Position numbers and translations under genes: made by a program. Source: a virus (Duplodnaviria; Heunggongvirae; Uroviricota; Caudoviricetes). Taken from it: a stretch of DNA of 15,816 bases. The stretch lies in the IMG/VR virus record IMGVR_UViG_2711768076_000018; one strand, 5' to 3'. Position 1 is the stretch's first letter. Each line of letters starts with the position of its first letter. The notes under the pieces were generated by a model that had not been told where the DNA came from, did not search any database, and worked only from the letters and a program-made list of their open reading frames with translations. This document shows, in pieces, positions 1,463 to 14,700 of this stretch.

Positions 1463-1629
1463 TATGGGGATCCCCATAACGGGGCTACCTGGCTTTTTTC
1501 CGGTTAAATGTCAATCAGGCTGGTGGGTTTTACATACCCTTGATCACCGTAATGATGATCCAGATCTGCACCTTTCCACCAATGGTGGAAAAGCCCACAG
1601 CAGGCCGCCCAGCCTCCCCCAATGGGGGA
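1463..1629. repeat. cluster of three GC-stem hairpins/palindromes in a non-coding region
   Basis: tATGGGGATCCCCATa (1463-1478, perfect palindrome); TTTCCACC-AAT-GGTGGAAA (1573-1591); TCCCCC-AAT-GGGGGA (1615-1629). The last two share an AAT loop. No convincing ORF covers them. Confidence 0.45.
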
Positions 1630-1884
1630 TTGTGGAAGAATCAACGGGTTAGGCCTTACCAGCAAAAAAGCACATCAACTGTAACGGAAATCGTTATGGT
1701 TGCTGGTGGGCTAAATCATCGTTATGGTGATGCAGCCATGTAGACGTTCCGGTCTCCTCAAATTGAGGTTTCCGAAAATATCAGCGGGTTAGCGATTAAA
1801 CTGACCATTAATTAAACTGCGAAAATGTCGTAGTTGTGAGGGGTGTAGCCAACCCATTTTTGGAACGTCGGGAATATCAACCAG

Positions 1885-2178
1885 TTACCGCCGCAACCGC
1901 TCCGGCTTCTTCCAGTGGTAAGTAATTTTTTCTTTCTCCTGGTACATCTCCACGCGGCGACGATATGACAACAACTCCAGAACTCTGGTGCGTATATTGC
2001 GTATATCCACGCCGTTAAGCTCGATACCGTCACGGCGCATCACCTCAGCCACCACACGCGCGTAATTTTTGGCTATCACGCTGTCCGGCTGCGTGGCCTC
2101 CTGTTTGCCTGCTTCCTGGCTGATTCCGGTAACGCGGCGGATTATTTTTAGTAGTTCGGTTTCGCTCATTCTCGTCAT
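1885..2178 (-). CDS. hypothetical protein (97 aa), last gene of packaging operon
   Basis: ATG at 2178 overlaps the TerL stop (ATGA overlap), suggesting translational coupling. No family recognised. Confidence 0.5.
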   Translation of the reverse strand: MTRMSETELLKIIRRVTGISQEAGKQEATQPDSVIAKNYARVVAEVMRRDGIELNGVDIRNIRTRVLELLSYRRRVEMYQEKEKITYHWKKPERLRR

Positions 2179-3836
2179 ACCCCATCAAACGCCGCAAGCC
2201 GCTCTTTGTGGCTGTCGCTCATATCAAATGCAAATTCCTCATGCTCTGCCTGGAATGTGCCAAACGCCATCAGCGCCGCAACGCTCGGGTCTATCTTGTT
2301 GGATGATTTTTTCTTGTTCGGCTTGATATTGGCGTTCGCGTCACTCTGCATCACAACATTACTCATTGACCAGGCCAGCACCGGATCGCCACGATGCACA
2401 ATCACCTTCCGGTTAACAAAAACTTCGAACGATTTCGCCGCCGGACTGAAACGAAGGTATGTTTGCGGGAACGGCTCCACCTCAAATCCTGCCCCCTGTA
2501 GCTGCGTCCTCAGGTGCGTGGCGTTCCATGTATCGAAGCCCACCAGCCTGATATTGAAATTCTCTGCATCCGCCATGATGTCATCACGGATACGGTCATA
2601 ATCAATGCAGTCACCCGGTGTTGTGCGTATCCAGCCCGCCTTTACCCACTGGCGATAGATGGCGCGGTTTTTATTGGCGGGGTTCTGTAGCTGAAATTCC
2701 GGCAGATAGTGACGGGAAACCAGCATAATCTTTTTACCGACCGGAAAGGCATAGCACACGCTGGAAATATCGCTGGTTGATGATAAGTCCAGCCCCGCGT
2801 AGCACTCCTGACCGTATAAATCCGCCTCCGCGAACGTTCCGGCGCACTCCGCCCATGCACCGTTACCCATCCACGGCGTAGCCCCCTGACACCAGATATT
2901 GAATCGCTTGGTGAGCATTTCCACCCACTGCGACGGAATACCCCGCGCTTTCTGGATGGTTGAGGCCAGTTTTTCACGATCGACGGAAACATCGATATTG
3001 GGATTCGCCTTTATCCACATCGCCGGATCGTCAACCTCGCTTTCATCATCCAGCTCGTAAATCAGCACGAACATGGATTCGTTCACCTCTTCACCATCCA
3101 GTATCTGGCAGCAATAGTCATAGTGTTGTTTACAGGCTGAAACAACGTTGCTCCCCGATGTGGTGATGGCAAATAACAGCCCCTCCGGACGCGCCCCCAT
3201 TCCCAGTTCAAGCGCGGAATAAACCCCGTTGTCAGGGTGCAGGTGATATTCATCCACAATGGCAAGACTCGGGTTTGTACCTTCAATGGTTGCCGCTTTT
3301 GCTGCCAGTGGCTTTAACAGGCTGTTGGTTTTCGGGTGTATCACCTTGTGTGCCTGAATATTTACCCGCTTTCGTAACGGTCGGGATAAAAGGCACATCT
3401 GACGCGCATCATCAAACACGATCCGCGCCTGATCACGACTCACGGCGGCGGTGTAAATATCCTGCTGCCCGTTTTCCATAACCAGAAACCAGTTAGCCAG
3501 GATAGCGGCGACCGTGGATTTGGCATTTTTTCGCGGCACTTCAATGAATGCGCTGGTGTATTTGCGCCGTCCGGTGGCCTTAACCTTAAAGCCCAGGATG
3601 CACGCAAAGGCGAACTGCTGCCACGGCTCCAGCTCAATGGGGCTACCGCGCATTGCGCCTTTTACGTGCGGACACACCCTGGAAAAGGCAATAAACCGCT
3701 CCACGACCTCCGGATCGAACGTGTAAAGGGGGTTTTCAAGGTCAGAAAAATACCGTTTAACGGCCTGTTTCAGTCGTTTACAGGCCGTAATTTTGCCGTT
3801 TTTTACGCCTTCTGCGTACTCATGCCAGGCGGTCAA
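2175..3836 (-). CDS. terL: terminase large subunit (HK97-like Terminase_1 family ATPase/nuclease)
   Basis: 553-aa ORF with typical large-terminase length and motifs. The ORF-track start at 3836 is a TTG codon preceded by GAGGA; no in-frame ATG lies nearby. Confidence 0.85.
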   Translation of the reverse strand: MTAWHEYAEGVKNGKITACKRLKQAVKRYFSDLENPLYTFDPEVVERFIAFSRVCPHVKGAMRGSPIELEPWQQFAFACILGFKVKATGRRKYTSAFIEVPRKNAKSTVAAILANWFLVMENGQQDIYTAAVSRDQARIVFDDARQMCLLSRPLRKRVNIQAHKVIHPKTNSLLKPLAAKAATIEGTNPSLAIVDEYHLHPDNGVYSALELGMGARPEGLLFAITTSGSNVVSACKQHYDYCCQILDGEEVNESMFVLIYELDDESEVDDPAMWIKANPNIDVSVDREKLASTIQKARGIPSQWVEMLTKRFNIWCQGATPWMGNGAWAECAGTFAEADLYGQECYAGLDLSSTSDISSVCYAFPVGKKIMLVSRHYLPEFQLQNPANKNRAIYRQWVKAGWIRTTPGDCIDYDRIRDDIMADAENFNIRLVGFDTWNATHLRTQLQGAGFEVEPFPQTYLRFSPAAKSFEVFVNRKVIVHRGDPVLAWSMSNVVMQSDANANIKPNKKKSSNKIDPSVAALMAFGTFQAEHEEFAFDMSDSHKERLAAFDGV

Positions 3837-4176
3837 GCTCGTCCTCTTCCTCTGTTTCCGGTGGATTTCTGCGGCGACTTACCGGGTCAAAACCCAGCAA
3901 AGAAGCCATTTTGATCATTATTCTTTCAGCGTCAGCCTTTGCGCTCAGGGCGGGGTTTCTGCTCTCGCTGCCCTGACTGTTAACAATGCTGAACCCGCGC
4001 GTGGCAAGGTCTTCGACGGCTTTGCGGTATATGGAGTAGTTAACGCAATACAGCTCCAGATTGCTCCAGTCGGCGGGAGTAAGGTCTTCCCGTCCGGAAA
4101 GCTGGCGCGATTTTTCCTTCCACTGCCTGACCGCGATTTCATCCAGGTAAGCGGGGGCTTTTGGTGGTCTTGCCAT
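3820..4176 (-). CDS. terS: terminase small subunit (P27-like family)
   Basis: The C-terminal 119 aa (MARPPKAPAYLDEIAVRQW ...) look like a small terminase. The 47 codons upstream to the ORF-track start (4317) have odd composition and rare codons, so ATG 4176 is preferred. Confidence 0.65.
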   Translation of the reverse strand: MARPPKAPAYLDEIAVRQWKEKSRQLSGREDLTPADWSNLELYCVNYSIYRKAVEDLATRGFSIVNSQGSESRNPALSAKADAERIMIKMASLLGFDPVSRRRNPPETEEEDELDRLA

Positions 4177-4464
4177 GTTCTTTTTTCGCCCAATTATTTT
4201 CAAAAAAATTCCCGTGCACAAAAATTTGAGGAGGCGGTCGGTGTCCGGCAGGGACGGTTTCGTCCTGAAAACCACCCCCACCCCCTCTGACGGCCTCACC
4301 AGCGATTGCGAAAACATTCCATGACCTCGCGGTCACGGTCGGTTAATTGCTTCGCTGTGGTGCGTTCTGTGCGCCCTGTCCTGTTGGCTTTGTGCCCTGT
4401 CTCCTGTGTCTTCCATAAGTCACGCTGCCTTATCAGTCCACGTATCAGCCTGGTTTGCTCCTGT
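4177..4464. other. HNH-TerS intergenic region, candidate cos/packaging site
   Basis: About 290 bp gap containing hairpin GGACGgtttCGTCC (4251-4264) and C-tract CCACCCCCACCCCCTC (about 4272-4287). In HK97-type cos phages the cos site lies between the HNH gene and terS. Confidence 0.3.
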
Positions 4465-4475
4465 TCAGTCATCAT
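4296..4475 (-). CDS. possible small basic protein (about 59 aa) overlapping the HNH 3' end
   Basis: In-frame ATGs at 4481/4475/4472 overlap the last HNH codons (MMTEQEQTRLIRGLIRQRDLWK ...). The SD is weak, so this is speculative. Confidence 0.25.
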   Translation of the reverse strand: MMTEQEQTRLIRGLIRQRDLWKTQETGHKANRTGRTERTTAKQLTDRDREVMECFRNRW

Positions 4476-4905
4476 CGCCATACATCCAGTCGTTACGGTG
4501 TGCTGCCCGTTCTTCCTGTTCGCGATACATGCCCGCCTTACGGTTCGCTTTCGTGGCTGGATCTTCCCGTGTCGTCTTACGGTTGTGGCACGTCTGGCAC
4601 AATGCCTGGTGGTTCCACTCAGGCCAGAAGAGAACATCACCGCCGCCATTGATGGGGATGATGTGATCCACCACAAGAGCTGGCGTATAAATCCCCTTAG
4701 CCAGACAACGCACGCATAACGGGTTTTTGCTCAGGTACAGGGCGCGGTATTTGTCCCACTGTCGGGAATACCCGCGCGCGCGGCGGTGTCCCCGTCTGGC
4801 ATCCTCTGCACGCCATACAGCCCGTCTGTGCTCTTCACACTTGCCGGACTTCACGCGCTTATTACAGCCCGGCTCAGTGCATCGCCTTAATGGTTGCCAC
4901 GGCAT
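4465..4905 (-). CDS. HNH endonuclease (terminase-associated)
   Basis: 146 aa with Cys-rich N-terminus and an HNH motif (DHIIP ... NHQALCQTCHNRKT). ATG 4905 overlaps the stop of the upstream gene (ATGA). Confidence 0.85.
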   Translation of the reverse strand: MPWQPLRRCTEPGCNKRVKSGKCEEHRRAVWRAEDARRGHRRARGYSRQWDKYRALYLSKNPLCVRCLAKGIYTPALVVDHIIPINGGGDVLFWPEWNHQALCQTCHNRKTTREDPATKANRKAGMYREQEERAAHRNDWMYGDDD

Positions 4906-8354: not shown

Positions 8355-8392
8355 CCAGAATCACCGAACAACCTGGAACAACCACGAACAAA
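8355..8392 (-). promoter_or_regulatory. three 10-bp-phased TTGTTC repeats upstream of the capsid operon (candidate activator site)
   Basis: Plus-strand GAACAA at 8366, 8376 and 8386. On the minus strand this reads TTGTTCGTGGTTGTTCCAGGTTGTTCGG. The 18-mer TTGTTCGTGGTTGTTCCA is identical to 14651-14668. Confidence 0.5.
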
Positions 8393-8444: not shown

Positions 8445-8693
8445 TTATTGTTTCACTGGCTCCCGCATTCTGCGTCTTATTTTCCACAAATATTCGATCA
8501 TCGCTTCCACCTGCTCACGGTTGGTTGCGAAAATTTCCCCGGTCAGTGAGCTACGCAGAAAATCATGATGATCCACAAAAAATAACGCATCGGAAGAAAG
8601 CAACCGACGATATTTTTTTGCTGTCGTGGTTTCCAGATCATCAAAACCATGAAGCTTTTTATGTTGCTGAACTTCTTCAAATGTCACTGGCAT
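8445..8693 (-). CDS. hypothetical protein (82 aa)
   Basis: ATG at 8693 overlaps the end of the ProQ/FinO gene by 10 nt. No family recognised. Confidence 0.5.
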   Translation of the reverse strand: MPVTFEEVQQHKKLHGFDDLETTTAKKYRRLLSSDALFFVDHHDFLRSSLTGEIFATNREQVEAMIEYLWKIRRRMREPVKQ

Positions 8694-9214
8694 GTATCCC
8701 CCTTTGCTGCCCGGCGCTGGCGCTTGTGCTTCTCATTCAGCACCATCAGCCGTGTTTCTGCCTCCTGCTGTTCCTGTGGTGTCACTTCCCCACATGGCTG
8801 GCCTTTCAGGTCGTAACGTGCGCCACCAGCTATCAGGGCGCGGTAATAGCGCGGAGACTGCGCATAGGATGCCAGCGTCGCACGTAATACCCCCGGCCCG
8901 AATGCCAGCCCCCTGACGGCGATATCCTGCATCAGGTCGTCGAATATCCCCACCTTAAGCGGCTTCGGTGCTTTATGGCTGAATAAGTCAGGCCACATCT
9001 CAGTGAGGCGGTTAACGCGTCGGCGGTTTTTGCGCTGCCTTTTGGTCATATGCTGCCACGGTGTCGCCCCTGTGGGCTTCTGCTGTGCGTTCTGATTGCC
9101 GGGTATCACTTTATGCGCCGATGTGGTTTTATCCTGCTCTTGCGCCGCCTGCGTCGTTTTCTGCGGCGTGCCGTAAATGCCTTTCGGCTTCCGGTTAATG
9201 GTCAGCGTTGTCAT
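8684..9214 (-). CDS. ProQ/FinO-domain RNA-binding protein
   Basis: 176 aa. The segment PLKVGIFDDLMQDI ... LRATLASYAQSPRYYRALIAGGARYDLKGQPCGEVTPQEQ matches the ProQ N-terminal FinO-like domain from memory (PLKIGIFQDL ... [22 protein letters not shown]). Basic low-complexity N-terminus. ATG 9214 with GGGGAAGG SD. Confidence 0.75.
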   Translation of the reverse strand: MTTLTINRKPKGIYGTPQKTTQAAQEQDKTTSAHKVIPGNQNAQQKPTGATPWQHMTKRQRKNRRRVNRLTEMWPDLFSHKAPKPLKVGIFDDLMQDIAVRGLAFGPGVLRATLASYAQSPRYYRALIAGGARYDLKGQPCGEVTPQEQQEAETRLMVLNEKHKRQRRAAKGDTCQ

Positions 9215-9963: not shown

Positions 9964-10192
9964 CTTCACCTGTTCACCTTTTGAGATTTTCCCTTTTTAT
10001 TCATAATGTTAAGGGGTGAACAGTTTCACAAAAACTATTCACCAACTGTTCACCACTGTTCACCCTTAAAGCTCAATAAATAATCAAAAAGGTGAACAGT
10101 GAATAGTTTGGTGAACAGTTCACAAATAACTGTTCACCCTATAATGTACTGATATAAAAGATATTTATAACAGGGTGAACAGTGGTGAACAG
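9964..10192. repeat. replication origin: iteron array of 9-bp GGTGAACAG / CTGTTCACC repeats flanking AT-rich DNA
   Basis: Perfect copies of GGTGAACAG at 10015, 10091, 10110, 10174 and 10184. Perfect inverse copies CTGTTCACC at 9970, 10046, 10056 and 10130. Degenerate copies at 10035 and 10099. AT-rich stretch at 10140-10170. The array abuts the primase stop at 10206. Confidence 0.75.
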
Positions 10193-10205
10193 TTATTCCA
10201 TAAGT

Positions 10206-12020
10206 TTAATTTTTGCTGTCGTCATTTGTGACCGATGCACATGATGGCATCCAGTCTTCTGAATCCTCTGTCAGTGTCACATTTGAACGCAAACCGTGCT
10301 TCGTTTTCCGTTTTATATACTCCCTGCCATATTCCGCCATTGCCCCCGGCATATCTTTACCGAAGCGCGTCAGTGTTACAGGTTTACCGAATCCGTGTGC
10401 CCTCATATATGCCAGATAGGCGTGATAAAGATACCTGCGCGGACTGAACGGAATAATTTCGGCATTACCCACTAACAGACCATCACACATTACCGACGAC
10501 ATGAGATAGCCACAGAAGTCCACCAGCGAATCGCCCTCGCGTTTTATCACCAGAGCTTCTTCTGATTTCTGCTGCTCATACAGCAGGCGTTTAGCTTCGT
10601 CCTGGTCAGAAAAACGAGTAAGCAGATGGCGAATCACAACCGCCAGCTCTCCTTCTATTTTTTCTGCCAGCATGGGGTCGCGCTCGTTCTCCGGTACAAC
10701 CTCCGAAAAATTGAATATCACCCGACGACGTGAGATCCCCCCGCTGCGGTCACTGAATGACATGGCGTTATTGTTCACCGCCAGCACGACCGCCTGAATG
10801 CGTGTTGAGTAGGGGGCTTTATGCTTCGGGTCGATTGCCACCTTGTCACCGCCTGTAATAGCCTTAATTCCTGCGCCATCACCAGCGTAGCGGGTCATAT
10901 CCGGCATGATAATCAGCGAAAAGCCAACCACTAACGCGCGTTCCCTTGCATCTTCCAGCGCCTTCATGCTTGCCGATACTGTGTTGGCCTTACCCGCCAG
11001 CATGGTGCAAATCTCCGCCATCACGCTTTTACCACTTCCCCCTGGACCTGTTACCTCAATGAATAACTGCCAGTCGTACCGGTTCGCCAGCACCATGAAT
11101 AATGCAGCCAGCACGCGATCCGTCTTGCGGTCATTCTCTGCCACCGAGCAGCGTAACCACTTCCAGAAATTCGGCGCATGTGTTGCCAGCGTTTCCCCCT
11201 CTGCTGGTGGGCTGAAAGGTAATTCACTGGCAATTAACAACCAGTCGTTTTTGTTATGCTCCCGAAAATTACCTGTTCTGGTATCAAATACCCCGTTACT
11301 GAATCCAATCAGGTTACGGGCTGTATTCCCCATTACAGGCAAACTTAACTTCATGGTATCGACCGCCGATTTAATGGCGTTCTGCGAATAGCTGATCTCC
11401 GCATCAATGAAAATCTGCGCCATAGCACGCTGTAACTCTTTATCCTGAATCGGCTCCCATACAACGCCGTTGTAATGGTGAACAGTGTCAGAGTCGGCAT
11501 GAATCGCCAGTTCACCGCCATAATGTGCCAGGAGAACTTCGCCGCGCTGGCTTGCTCCCATCTGGTTAAGCGCCAGTGGTGCGGCGCTGTCTTCTGTTTT
11601 TTTCTTAACAGGAAGCTGAATCACCAGACCATCAGAAAGATTCTGGCGCTCACGGGCCAGATATTCGCGCCAGTTCTGCACCTCCTGGCCGTGCATACCC
11701 TCAGGATAAAAATTTGCATCCTGTACGCCTGCCGCCGCCAGCTTCTGACCAATCGCCTTTATCATTACTGGCGCAAGATATCCGGCCCTGAATATGCGCA
11801 CGGATTTTCTGCCTTCCGGCACAATTTGCAGCTTATCCAGTTCGGATAACTGCTGCTCCCCAAGCCACACAGGAGGCTCATTATCTCCGGCCATACGCGC
11901 GTCATGTTCCTGCCATTGTTTTGCGTGTGACCAGGCATCACTACCCGCAAAAATAATGACTTCTGTTTCTTTGTGTTTTATGCCGCGTGACTGCTGTTTT
12001 ACGTTCGGTGCCAGTTTCAT
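10206..12020 (-). CDS. primase/helicase replication initiator (P4-alpha-like, Walker A NTPase C-terminal domain)
   Basis: 604 aa with Walker A GPGGSGKS in the C-terminal half, of a size typical for satellite or plasmid primase-helicases. ATG 12020 overlaps the upstream stop (ATGA). Confidence 0.85.
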   Translation of the reverse strand: MKLAPNVKQQSRGIKHKETEVIIFAGSDAWSHAKQWQEHDARMAGDNEPPVWLGEQQLSELDKLQIVPEGRKSVRIFRAGYLAPVMIKAIGQKLAAAGVQDANFYPEGMHGQEVQNWREYLARERQNLSDGLVIQLPVKKKTEDSAAPLALNQMGASQRGEVLLAHYGGELAIHADSDTVHHYNGVVWEPIQDKELQRAMAQIFIDAEISYSQNAIKSAVDTMKLSLPVMGNTARNLIGFSNGVFDTRTGNFREHNKNDWLLIASELPFSPPAEGETLATHAPNFWKWLRCSVAENDRKTDRVLAALFMVLANRYDWQLFIEVTGPGGSGKSVMAEICTMLAGKANTVSASMKALEDARERALVVGFSLIIMPDMTRYAGDGAGIKAITGGDKVAIDPKHKAPYSTRIQAVVLAVNNNAMSFSDRSGGISRRRVIFNFSEVVPENERDPMLAEKIEGELAVVIRHLLTRFSDQDEAKRLLYEQQKSEEALVIKREGDSLVDFCGYLMSSVMCDGLLVGNAEIIPFSPRRYLYHAYLAYMRAHGFGKPVTLTRFGKDMPGAMAEYGREYIKRKTKHGLRSNVTLTEDSEDWMPSCASVTNDDSKN

Positions 12021-12555: not shown

Positions 12556-13012
12556 GGCTTACATCCTCAGGAAATTTTCTTCTATAACGCGCCTCTGCCA
12601 CATATTCCGCATAATCGGCGGCGATATTCAGTACATCAAGCCCCGTTGATTTATATTCTCTCGTGGAAAGTAAGAAAAAAGCCGCTCTAATAAGCTCTGG
12701 CATTGACGAAAGCGCATCAGCCGCATCATCAGGAACGCCGGAAAATTCCTGTTTCAGGGAATTAAAACGATCATCACGCATAACCCCCCCATTTTCACAA
12801 TCAGCAATCAGGATGGCTTTAGCCTCATTCAGCGCCATATCCGCACTAAGTTGCATAACAGCCAGTGAGTGAGGAACGAAAGCCCCGGCATATTCTGTTT
12901 CGCTGGTGGCGCGCTTATGCGCCTTGTCTGCGATAACAGAAATATCAATCAGCGCGTGCATCAGCGTTTTGATGGCTTCGGCGGCTGCGTCCGGACGGGT
13001 GTTATTGCACAT
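12548..13012 (-). CDS. hypothetical protein (154 aa)
   Basis: ATG 13012 overlaps the upstream stop by 11 nt. Confidence 0.5.
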   Translation of the reverse strand: MCNNTRPDAAAEAIKTLMHALIDISVIADKAHKRATSETEYAGAFVPHSLAVMQLSADMALNEAKAILIADCENGGVMRDDRFNSLKQEFSGVPDDAADALSSMPELIRAAFFLLSTREYKSTGLDVLNIAADYAEYVAEARYRRKFPEDVSHA

Positions 13013-13208
13013 GGCGTACCCCCTGACGAATACGGGCAGCGAATACCATCACGCAGCCATCAGGAGATTGCTGACGCGCTTCCTGTTCGCTGGTGGCCTC
13101 AATGGTAATCACGCGCGGTTGTGCCGTGCTCAGGGCGATAAAACGCCAGATGTATTTATTCAGGTTGTACGAGTCCCGCCCTTGCGGGTGTCTGGTATAA
13201 TTTCTCAT
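13002..13208 (-). CDS. hypothetical small protein (68 aa), first gene of the leftward replication operon
   Basis: ATG 13208 with GAGG SD. This is the in-frame C-terminal part of a 374-aa ORF-track call that is itself implausible. Confidence 0.4.
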   Translation of the reverse strand: MRNYTRHPQGRDSYNLNKYIWRFIALSTAQPRVITIEATSEQEARQQSPDGCVMVFAARIRQGVRHVQ

Positions 13209-13407
13209 AGCTGCCTCGATACTTCTGCTATCGTTGGTGGTTAGAAGCCCGTTGGTGTTGGTAGCACCTGCGGGCTTTGTCTTTTCATCGATTACCTTAA
13301 TAAAGGTGTCAGCCACTATACTAGTGACAGGTGTCAGCCACGTCAATAGTGTTTTTCTATTTTCTTGTGTGTATACTGTCAGCCACCTAATAACAAGGAA
13401 ATCAGAT
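13209..13407. promoter_or_regulatory. divergent promoter/operator region with three TGTCAGCCAC repeats
   Basis: TGTCAGCCAC at 13307-13316, 13332-13341 and 13377-13386. The third copy overlaps a TATACT -10-like hexamer upstream of the plus-strand gene at 13408. On the minus strand the repeats read GTGGCTGACA and contain -35-like TGACA. Confidence 0.45.
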
Positions 13408-13587
13408 ATGGCAACGAAAGCAGTTAATGGAAAATCCAAAAAACTTGAGGCACGAGTACCCCATGCAATAGCTGACGCTGTAGAAAATTTAAAGGAAGAA
13501 GGCGAAAGCACTGGGCAATTTATCGTTTCGGCGCTTGAAGGTGAGATCAAACGCCGCCAGCGCCGAAAGGCCAAAGAGCAGGAATAA
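13408..13587 (+). CDS. small ribbon-helix-helix-like DNA-binding protein (59 aa), candidate regulator
   Basis: ATG 13408 with AAGGAA SD. The predicted strand-helix-helix pattern (KLEARVPHAIADAVENLKEEGESTGQFIVSALEGEI) and basic C-tail fit an RHH protein. It is one of only two plus-strand genes in the element and diverges from the replication operon. Confidence 0.55.
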   Translation: MATKAVNGKSKKLEARVPHAIADAVENLKEEGESTGQFIVSALEGEIKRRQRRKAKEQE

Positions 13588-13644
13588 CCATCACCAGCGC
13601 CGTGGTGTAAGGTATTACGGCGCATTGCTATGCAGGACAACACA

Positions 13645-13818
13645 ATGACCGATAAAGAATTGACCAAAACATTATCACCGACACGGAAAAGACGACGCAG
13701 AAAGATAGAGCATGAATCAGAAAGATTCGCGCCATGTGCTTTTGCCCTTGAGCAATTCCTTAAAGAGTACAGGGAAAAGCGCTCATTGCAGGTATGGCAA
13801 CGAACTGAACCAGACTGA
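13645..13818 (+). CDS. hypothetical small basic protein (57 aa)
   Basis: ATG 13645 preceded by AGGA at 7-nt spacing. Followed by a plus-strand terminator at 13885-13913. Confidence 0.35.
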   Translation: MTDKELTKTLSPTRKRRRRKIEHESERFAPCAFALEQFLKEYREKRSLQVWQRTEPD

Positions 13819-13884
13819 TTGCATTGCCCACCAGCCGCAAATGTGGCATTGTTGGTGATGCTTTTGTTTTCCCTTGTTCCCACT

Positions 13885-13913
13885 GGCGACCCTTTTGCGG
13901 TCGCCTTTGTTTT
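13885..13913 (+). terminator. intrinsic terminator for the plus-strand small-gene unit
   Basis: GGCGACC-cttttgc-GGTCGCC hairpin followed by TTTGTTTTGCTT. Confidence 0.65.
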
Positions 13914-13951
13914 GCTTGTTATCCGGCAATAGTGGCGCTTCACCACACGGT

Positions 13952-14038
13952 TGATATAATTCCCCTGCACTGATCCATTTTTTTCGCAGCAGGTTAATTG
14001 TTCAGAAAGGCGGTTCCTTATCGGGGCCGCTTTTTTTA
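13952..14038 (+). ncRNA. candidate small RNA (about 70 nt) from an extended -10 promoter to an intrinsic terminator
   Basis: TGaTATAAT at 13952-13960 is a consensus -10 with extended TG motif; the -35 is poor. Terminator hairpin GCGGTTCC-ttatc-GGGGCCGC plus T7 lies at 14010-14037. No ORF with an RBS lies between. Confidence 0.3.
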
Positions 14039-14150
14039 TGCCTGAAAATACCCGATAACATGGCTTTTTAGTTTCACCAGGACGAACGAAGCCCCGCCCC
14101 TGTTCGGGCGTATATCCAGTATTCATGGTTAGATCTCTGTGTTAGTGGAT

Positions 14151-14178: not shown

Positions 14179-14367
14179 TTAGTGAACTGCCTCGCGGCTG
14201 TCCTTCCATGCCAGAACTTCGGATAAAGACCAGCCAACGGAACGACCGCCGAGTTTACGCCGTGATGGGAATTGTCCGGTCTTCTCCAGGCGATACCGAC
14301 ATGAGCGGCTCAGGCCTGTAAGTTGCTGACATTCTTTTTCACGTATAAAGCGATCTGTGCTTAACAC
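14179..14367 (-). CDS. alpA: AlpA-family (Xis-like winged-helix) transcriptional regulator
   Basis: 62 aa with the AlpA signature: a helix-turn-helix around TGLSRS and a downstream GWSLSEV motif (compare VGW in CP4-57 AlpA). GTG start at 14367 with a strong AAAGGGGGAA SD. Sits immediately downstream of int. Confidence 0.8.
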   Translation of the reverse strand: MLSTDRFIREKECQQLTGLSRSCRYRLEKTGQFPSRRKLGGRSVGWSLSEVLAWKDSREAVH

Positions 14368-14650: not shown

Positions 14651-14700
14651 TTGTTCGTGGTTGTTCCACGTTGTTTCACATTGTTCGCCGTTGTATCTGT
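14651..14700 (+). promoter_or_regulatory. five tandem 10-bp-phased TTGTTC-type repeats just 3' of int
   Basis: TTGTTCGTGG TTGTTCCACG TTGTTTCACA TTGTTCGCCG TTGTATCTGT. The first 18 nt are identical to the array upstream of the capsid operon (8374-8391, opposite strand). Confidence 0.5.

Follow-up and report, generated by a model that had tools for sequence, protein, structure and literature searches.

The Roi protein of phage HK022 reportedly binds within its own gene, beside a site for integration host factor (IHF), which is said to stabilize the complex. RIB/RIP elements (BIME-1), found at the 3΄ ends of Escherichia coli transcription units, consist of two inverted REP units that carry the REP consensus and flank an IHF site. 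The attP arms of P4/lambda-type integrases, which are bound by an arm-binding integrase, combine direct repeats on both sides of the core with an IHF site near the core and excisionase-type boxes. Here, we compare with these systems one end of an island integrated next to allC. The island is contained in the IMG/VR virus record IMGVR_UViG_2711768076_000018 (Caudoviricetes; 15,816 nucleotides, hereafter the window) and is, judged by its gene content, a capsid-forming phage-inducible chromosomal island (cf-PICI), that is, a satellite for which induction by a helper phage and transfer in particles with helper tails would be expected from its class. The original prediction had singled out positions 1463–1709, in a region of about 650 bp poor in open reading frames (ORFs) between allC and the packaging operon, for three hairpins and two Chi sites, and had proposed a structured RNA, a recombination or packaging signal, or the remains of a cargo locus.

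The gap from the allC stop codon (1236) to the next gene (1885) measured 648 bp, in agreement with that estimate, and 629 bp of it (1256–1884) are island DNA. This island end comprises three layers, namely a probable attP arm, a conserved block (~1404–1530) and an array of putative protein-binding boxes (1570–1887). From the sequence, we tentatively predict that the array consists of DNA-level boxes for IHF and for phage Roi/Rha-type proteins, a reading that we place a little below an even chance.

The array of palindromes and IHF-type motifs

Perfect palindromes and hairpins were abundant in the island end: 16 entries were counted in 1256–1884, against 4.3 ± 2.5 in 500 dinucleotide shuffles, none of which reached 16. 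Both hairpins with AAT loops named in the original prediction were present, and it had missed two palindromes (marked below), the IHF-type motifs and the attachment-site features. The array is composed as follows, and the phage matches given are those of local alignment.

1573–1601, + strand: box 1, which contains hairpin 1 (TTTCCACCAATGGTGGAAA, 1573–1591, 8-bp stem, AAT loop); 29/29 identical to nt 70–98 of the Rha-like ant gene of SSU5 (codons FPPMVEKPTA)
1615–1654, + strand: module A, with hairpin 2 (TCCCCCAATGGGGGA, 1615–1629, 6-bp stem, AAT loop) and IHF core AATCAACGGGTTA (1639–1651); 1627–1654 is 27/28 identical to nt 141–168 of the rha-type gene of phi330
1675–1705, + strand: box 3, holding palindrome TAACGGAAATCGTTA (1682–1696, missed earlier); 30/31 identical to nt 148–178 of 933W ant (P22_AR_N family)
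1748–1791, + strand: module B, with palindrome CCTCAAATTGAGG (1756–1768, missed earlier) and IHF-type core TATCAGCGGGTTA (1779–1791); 1748–1777 is 30/30 identical to nt 122–151 of PhiR49_2 roi
1814–1835, + strand: imperfect palindrome AAACTGCGAAAATGTCGTAGTT, which becomes a perfect palindrome of 23 bp, AAACTACGAAAATTTCGTAGTTT, in some relatives
1853–1887, + strand: module C, with a weak palindrome (CCCATTTTTGG) and IHF core TATCAACCAGTTA (1875–1887), the core overlapping the stop codon of a gene of 97 amino acids (aa)

The IHF consensus was searched for as the pattern WATCAANNNNTTR, and four of its six matches in the window lay inside 1275–1887, compared with 1.1 expected for the whole window. 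In the three full modules (A, B and C), the centre of the palindrome lies 16.5–17 bp upstream of this consensus.

We compared this arrangement with related islands, in which 16 sequence types of the island end yielded 36 unique units. Each unit consisted of a variable GC-stem palindrome followed by an IHF-consensus motif; all units were on the + strand, with one to six per island, and the module B type was the commonest. Of the 36 units, 28 had a perfect stem of 4 bp or more at a constant register, compared with 0.3 in shuffled sequences (maximum 3 in 2000). This register places the end of the 5΄ arm 19 nt before the core and the centre of the palindrome at –16.5 to –17, modules A and B included, and at least six unrelated stems occupy it (CCTCA, GCGCA, CAGCC, CCCA, TCCCCC and TTCGCC). 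Directly abutting units lay 48 nt apart in the 16 sequence types, and a different satellite group of 14 loci (L125, L127 and 12 similar IMG/VR loci) contained three tandem modules with a spacing of 54 nt. In the non-coding copies, additional conserved positions flank the core while the spacer varies. Satellites of other types, located by yejO and clpS, also carry pieces of the array at their non-coding ends. Separately, the arrays of L010, L014, L023 and L028 contain an insert of ~250 nt that is absent from the window. Its minus strand has a strong hairpin with a T6 run behind it (ATGACGTGGCCAACGTCAT TTTTTT), an arrangement that resembles a terminator for a small cargo transcript.

A comparison with phage sequences using blastn gave matches that were short but very strong, each of them to an antirepressor gene and in its sense direction. 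As listed above, four pieces of 28–31 nt were 96–100% identical to four different antirepressor genes. Box 1 was also matched at the protein level (tblastn, 15 of 18 residues, E 3e-7), and hairpin 1 corresponds to the codons FPPMVEK of the SSU5-type gene. Box 1 and modules A and B map to one part of the Rha N-terminal domain (approximately residues 21–56), and box 3 maps to a different family. Module B-type sequence matches the roi genes of HK620, H-19B, HK75 and others. When the other island sequence types were compared with phages, only the roi-type unit was matched.

The same layout occurs within the phage genes themselves. In 72 IMG/VR roi/rha loci, CCTCAAATTGAGG or CCTCAATTTGAGG is located within the coding sequence together with an IHF core (AATCAATGGGTTA or AATCAATAACTTA) in the same register, the core being absent in one of them (71/72). 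The roi gene of HK022 carries another palindrome, CTGCATTGCAG, centred 17 nt before AATCAATGATTTA. The palindrome of hairpin 2, CCCCCAATGGGGG, was found by a register pattern search in full-length rha genes located on phage contigs of up to 55 kb; the products are 63–65% identical to phi330 Rha, and CCCCCAATGGGGG encodes PPMG at the same codon position, followed by TATCAACAGCTTA. The palindrome spot encodes PQIE, PPALQ, PPMG or PPMVE in different roi/rha alleles, and a palindrome is kept in each. Such maintenance across alleles that encode different amino acids would merit attention even if the satellite array were debris. Each palindrome type is accompanied by a different helix-turn-helix region, including the putative recognition helix (RHDNVKRTIETL, RHSNVKVSIDRL, RHDKVKQSIERL and RHDSVKRTIERL); these are four data points and no more than suggestive. 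The three tandem palindromes of L125-type satellites correspond, in order, to the phi330/HK620, L153 and HK022 alleles, and satellite palindromes are often more perfect than their phage counterparts.

The presence of antirepressor-gene pieces agrees in part with the suggestion that the region is a degraded cargo locus. However, the pieces do not line up along a single gene, one segment is present up to six times in relatives, and both the pairing of the palindromes and their register to the IHF motif persist while the sequence changes. An antirepressor pseudogene, or any single decayed gene, was therefore rejected. Two other candidates were likewise set aside. A CRISPR-like array does not fit, as judged by eye, in that the phage-identical pieces of ~30 nt are not separated by repeats, and an integron attC site was considered for GTTAGGC, which fits the core-site consensus but is accompanied by neither an inverse core nor an integron integrase.

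Explanations for the array

We propose that the array could bind, as double-stranded DNA, host IHF together with the Roi/Rha (and perhaps Ant) proteins of helper phages. The boxes, of which the two AAT-loop hairpins would be two, may be operators copied from several phage alleles, and the array might either soak up phage regulators or report an active phage to the satellite. If Roi does bind its own gene as is said, the palindrome-plus-IHF module would be a Roi operator and the array a set of such operators. The layout, the homology to phage genes, the register and the variety of alleles are observed, and all binding and function are predicted from them. A broader form of this proposal is that enterobacterial phage satellites keep, in their non-coding end, a panel of decoy operators copied from the self-sites of helper antirepressors (Roi/Rha and Ant families), representing different alleles and mostly paired with IHF sites, which titrates these regulators or senses which phage is active; in this general form we regard it as distinctly unlikely. 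If operators are indeed present, the array would be a concrete link between helper regulators and satellite DNA and a new case of molecular mimicry at the DNA level, and interest in it would rise on shown binding.

Several observations weigh against the operator proposal. The IHF sites are predicted solely by their fit to the consensus. Much of that consensus is imposed on the unit set by the regular expression with which it was gathered, and the units are related by descent, so that the counts given above are not counts of independent events. Box 1 and box 3 lack an IHF core, and most palindrome types in the relatives were without a phage counterpart in the collections searched. Quasi-palindromes can become perfect through template switching, without selection. 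The overlap of module C with a gene end also fits a role at the 3΄ end of an mRNA, and the + strand of the array folds better than shuffled sequences (z –4.4). In addition, the conserved block with its 16-bp palindrome is not accounted for by an array of regulator boxes, and its invariance in 29 IMG/VR loci, equal to that in the islands described below, is partly by construction, these loci having been fetched with a 37-mer from the block.

The main rival, which is serious even though we consider it unlikely, holds that the array is recombination debris, a non-functional mosaic left by satellite–phage exchange and cargo turnover at an accessory end, with palindromes that persist or become perfect through template-switch repair and not through selection. 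The array is indeed highly mosaic: at least 80% of the stretch was present in only 17 of 1073 matching E. coli genomes, the number of units and the inserts between them vary, and phage identity of up to 100% spans only ~30 nt. Long open frames also survive on the + strand, as in recently coding DNA, and stems are degenerate in some units, including module C of the window. However, one decayed gene cannot yield up to six copies of one 50-nt segment, and debris explains less well why 28 of 36 units maintain their register to the IHF core although their stems are unrelated, and why abutting units recur at a regular spacing of 48 or 54 nt. Nor would it lead us to expect non-coding copies that keep extra positions flanking the core while the spacer varies, or satellite palindromes more perfect than those of phages. 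Even as debris, the array would mark a hotspot of satellite–phage exchange.

Roles at the RNA level fit the evidence less well than either debris or DNA binding. We counted 26 mismatches in the stems, comprising 7 G.T, 4 A.C and 15 others; there was no wobble bias for either strand, and therefore nothing points to RNA pairing on either strand. No Rfam family matched the window at the gathering score, and only two chance-level matches were obtained in the region at E ≤ 10. A terminator scan gave no match at the three hairpins, with no T-run after a hairpin on either strand, and a single match at 1882–1899. The structured RNA of the original prediction thus found no support in these tests.

In one such reading, the hairpins on the minus strand form the 3΄ untranslated region of the packaging operon, where they stabilize or end the mRNA and shield int in the excised circle, perhaps bound by a ProQ/FinO protein. 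The array begins at the stop codon that closes the packaging operon, transcription of the minus strand would enter int in the circular form according to the gene order, the island encodes a ProQ/FinO protein, and the fold z is –2.2 on the minus strand, in addition to the value for the + strand given above. However, besides the missing T-runs and wobble bias, the conserved partner of the hairpin is the motif of a protein that binds double-stranded DNA, and the module sits in sense within phage coding sequence, where a minus-strand RNA role makes no sense. We therefore rate this reading as improbable.

A small RNA from the plus strand is less probable again. It would start from a promoter-like sequence at 1529–1556 (+ strand; TTTACA, 16 nt, AATGAT) and, by containing segments of phage ant/rha mRNA in sense, would divert the antisense regulators of phages as a decoy. 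The promoter-like match is kept in two sequence types, the hairpin at 1814–1835 varies among A-T, G.T and G-C on the plus strand, and the four phage-identical pieces are all in sense, which together with the + strand folding would suit this reading. However, the promoter match is a weak one to the sigma-70 consensus (9/12), of a kind found three times in the region with 1.6 expected, the content and length of the array are too variable for one RNA, and neither a terminator, an Rfam family nor an overall wobble bias was found by the tests described above.

The probable attP arm, the conserved block and the Chi sites

The remaining layers precede the array, with the exception of the second Chi site, and comprise the following features.

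1249–1255: attachment-site core GGGATAT, placed by alignment with K-12 allC–allE and with the other island junction of L001
1275–1287, – strand: IHF consensus AATCAATGCGTTA, ~25 bp from the core, found by pattern search; candidate attP IHF site
1331–1353, + strand: two tandem TTAACTACACC repeats, candidate integrase arm-type sites
1370–1386, + strand: 17-mer GAAACAACGTGGAACAA, candidate AlpA/excisionase-type box
1463–1478: perfect 16-bp palindrome TATGGGGATCCCCATA
1494–1499, + strand: T-run, T6 in the window and T7 or T8 in other islands
1519–1526, + strand: Chi-1 (GCTGGTGG), present in all 30 family members examined
1702–1709, + strand: Chi-2 (GCTGGTGG), present only in window-like sequence types

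The crossover lies inside the start-codon region of allE (ATG, 1247–1249), at GGGATAT; therefore, everything from 1256 is island DNA and the allE start codon is lost. The insertion thus separates allC and allE, which are genes of one operon. Several other islands begin to match at ~1255–1259 (positions 1–4 of the query 1256–1884). At the far junction (L001 26400–26470), AAAAGGGATAT stands in place of the ATG, and the annotated allE is 42 nt shorter than that of K-12. Most of the 16 sequence types retain CATTGATTTAATTAAA at the candidate attP IHF site. A second TTAACTACACC pair was found near int at the other island end of L001, inside a 75-nt direct repeat that is 79% identical, and the repeat common to both arms ends at 1403. 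The 17-mer GAAACAACGTGGAACAA also occurs at 14661–14677 and 14681–14697 (upstream of alpA) and at 8365–8381 (upstream of the capsid operon), giving four matches where 0.07 was expected; it could be bound by AlpA and so couple excision with the activation of late genes. By comparison with lambda/P4-type integrases, we infer that 1256 to ~1403 is one attP arm with candidate integrase arm sites, an IHF site and an AlpA-type box. The proposal of a recombination signal fits the left third of the region and the genuine Chi octamers, but the hairpins are not the recombination site.

Beyond 1403 comes a conserved block for which the other arm shows no equivalent. Within it lie the 16-bp palindrome, the T-run of varying length and Chi-1. 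Islands integrated at four chromosomal sites (allE, downstream of phoQ, tqsA and yifB), with differing packaging modules, carry the block almost unchanged. The palindrome, which had been described as 14 bp long, extends to 16 bp and was present in all E. coli loci that were found independently of it. The block gave no phage match, and its RNA folding was no better than that of shuffled sequences (z –0.6 and –0.1 for the two strands). By its sequence, the block is satellite-specific, conserved and non-coding, the last because stop-codon and indel polymorphisms were found in both candidate frames. Two mechanical ORFs of more than 60 aa do exist in the region (97 aa, 1359–1652; 67 aa, 1540–1743; both +), although the original prediction had seen no credible one; neither has a Pfam match, and in the + frame TCA is changed to TAA in 8 of 16 sequence types and one type has a 7-nt deletion, so that its judgement on credibility holds.

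In the HNH-dependent packaging of HK97-type phages, cos lies in the gap between HNH and terS, which here spans 147 nt (4318–4464). The stretch under study is downstream of terL and ~2.5 kb from that gap, and a packaging signal, as had been suggested, is unlikely. In classical PICIs, cos is located just upstream of rpp in a cos–terS-like layout, which also differs from the position of the stretch. A cos site cut at the 16-bp palindrome would be suggested by a perfect palindrome inside an invariant block and by IHF motifs, which are known parts of lambda-type cosB (PMC9026076). However, the block is common to islands with different sets of packaging genes, and neither Chi site would be correctly oriented with respect to an end made at 1470; we consider such a site highly improbable. 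Equally improbable is a small protein gene, either a minus-strand ORF of 44 aa (1343–1477) that starts in the palindrome or a plus-strand ORF from ATG 1368: PGAP annotates a hypothetical ORF of 125 aa in one genome (L005) and the minus-strand frame is open in most types, but the plus frame is broken by the TAA codon and the frame-shifting T-run lengths, the minus frame contains a stop codon in L012, begins differently in L004-type islands and varies mostly by non-synonymous changes, and the ORF overlaps the arm-type repeats and has no Pfam match.

Both Chi octamers noted previously are genuine and on the same strand, and Chi-2 arises exactly where the homology to 933W ant ends. They belong to an island-wide enrichment and are not special to this stretch. 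The window contains 14 copies, compared with 0.56 expected from shuffles, and all 14 are within the 14.6 kb of island DNA, seven per strand; the density was ~1.0 per kb in all 30 relatives (L011–L039 among them), whereas the chromosomal flanks (43.5 kb) had 0.30 per kb. RecBCD reads Chi from the 3΄ side of the octamer. If cos is in the HNH–terS gap, RecBCD moving to lower coordinates would meet both Chi sites in the active orientation before attP and, on the circular map, int. Chi may form a separate layer that blunts RecBCD attack on linear, cos-packaged DNA, and its island-wide occurrence suggests that, once injected, these satellites depend on recognition of Chi by the host in order to withstand RecBCD. 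Among phages, genomes without a RecBCD inhibitor are reportedly rich in Chi; the island resembles them as an element that would enter as linear DNA with Chi several-fold above host density. To our knowledge, Chi enrichment has not been described for PICI satellites. No Gam-type RecBCD inhibitor was among the Pfam and PHROG matches of the scanned genes, although no systematic search for one was made.

The island and known systems

Every island gene is on the minus strand. According to Pfam and PHROG matches, the set comprises int, alpA and primase together with capsid, protease, portal, adaptor, HNH, TerS and TerL genes, as in cf-PICIs (bioRxiv 10.1101/2022.09.08.507074). The genes of the window are arranged as follows.

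1–1236, + strand: allC, at the start of the window
1885–2178, – strand: 97-aa gene (phrog_1561), last of the packaging operon, no assigned role
2175–3836, – strand: TerL
3820–4317, – strand: TerS
4465–4905, – strand: HNH nuclease
beyond HNH, – strand: head-tail adaptor, portal, prohead protease and major capsid protein
8684–9214, – strand: ProQ/FinO-family RNA-binding protein, adjoining an SSB gene
10206–12020, – strand: D5-type primase-helicase
between primase and alpA, – strand: DUF4222 protein and several unassigned proteins
14179–14367, – strand: AlpA
14743 to the window end, – strand: tyrosine integrase with an arm-binding domain (Arm-DNA-bind_3), the last gene

The island extends from 1256 to past 15816, which fits the cf-PICI size of ~10–15 kb, and near-identical copies of the stretch under study were found in nine E. 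coli genomes, in each case between allC and allE; in the best of these genomes, the two genes bound the island. In this closest match, allC (L001 14765–16000) is annotated as a pseudogene with an internal stop; the allC frame of the window is open for 411 codons. Scans of the island proteins against Pfam and PHROG gave no tail or lysis family. The product of the 97-aa last gene had no homologue in the phage collection, and a search of genome contigs with it returned one locus only. PADLOC gave no match for the island proteins of unassigned role, and neither a tRNA nor a tmRNA was found. A 374-aa protein (13002–14126) adjoins alpA at lower coordinates on the same strand; its C-terminal 90 residues match repressor PHROGs (phrog_6196), and the remainder gave no match. 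Immediately downstream of the gene for the primase-helicase, 9969–10194 contains approximately nine GGTGAACAGT iterons in both orientations and, at 10142–10154, an IHF consensus. This cluster is probably the island replication origin, and 1256–1884 was rejected as an origin, the iterons being located elsewhere, by the primase gene.

The island-end region is not described in the cf-PICI and PICI packaging literature that we consulted, and we compared it with the systems introduced above. The proposed arm resembles those of P4/lambda-type integrases in its direct repeats on both sides of the core, its IHF site near the core, its excisionase-type box and its arm-binding integrase. This likeness covers 1256 to ~1403, whereas 1463–1709 sits 210–450 bp from the core, farther than such arms are known to extend.

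The array shares with RIB/RIP elements the presence of repeated palindromes beside an IHF site, just past the end of an operon. However, each of its units has one variable palindrome, on the 5΄ side of the IHF motif only, and lacks the REP consensus, and the array shares sequence with phage genes. The HK022 roi site is closer: modules A and B have the same layout, with a palindrome centred 17 bp upstream of an IHF consensus, and module B is identical to a roi allele over 30 of 30 positions. In contrast, the phage has one coding module within the gene of the regulator itself, whereas the satellite has several non-coding modules with different palindromes and, according to protein family scans, encodes no Rha/Roi protein. 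Judged by its sequence, the array belongs to neither the roi-site kind nor the RIB/RIP kind as these are defined.

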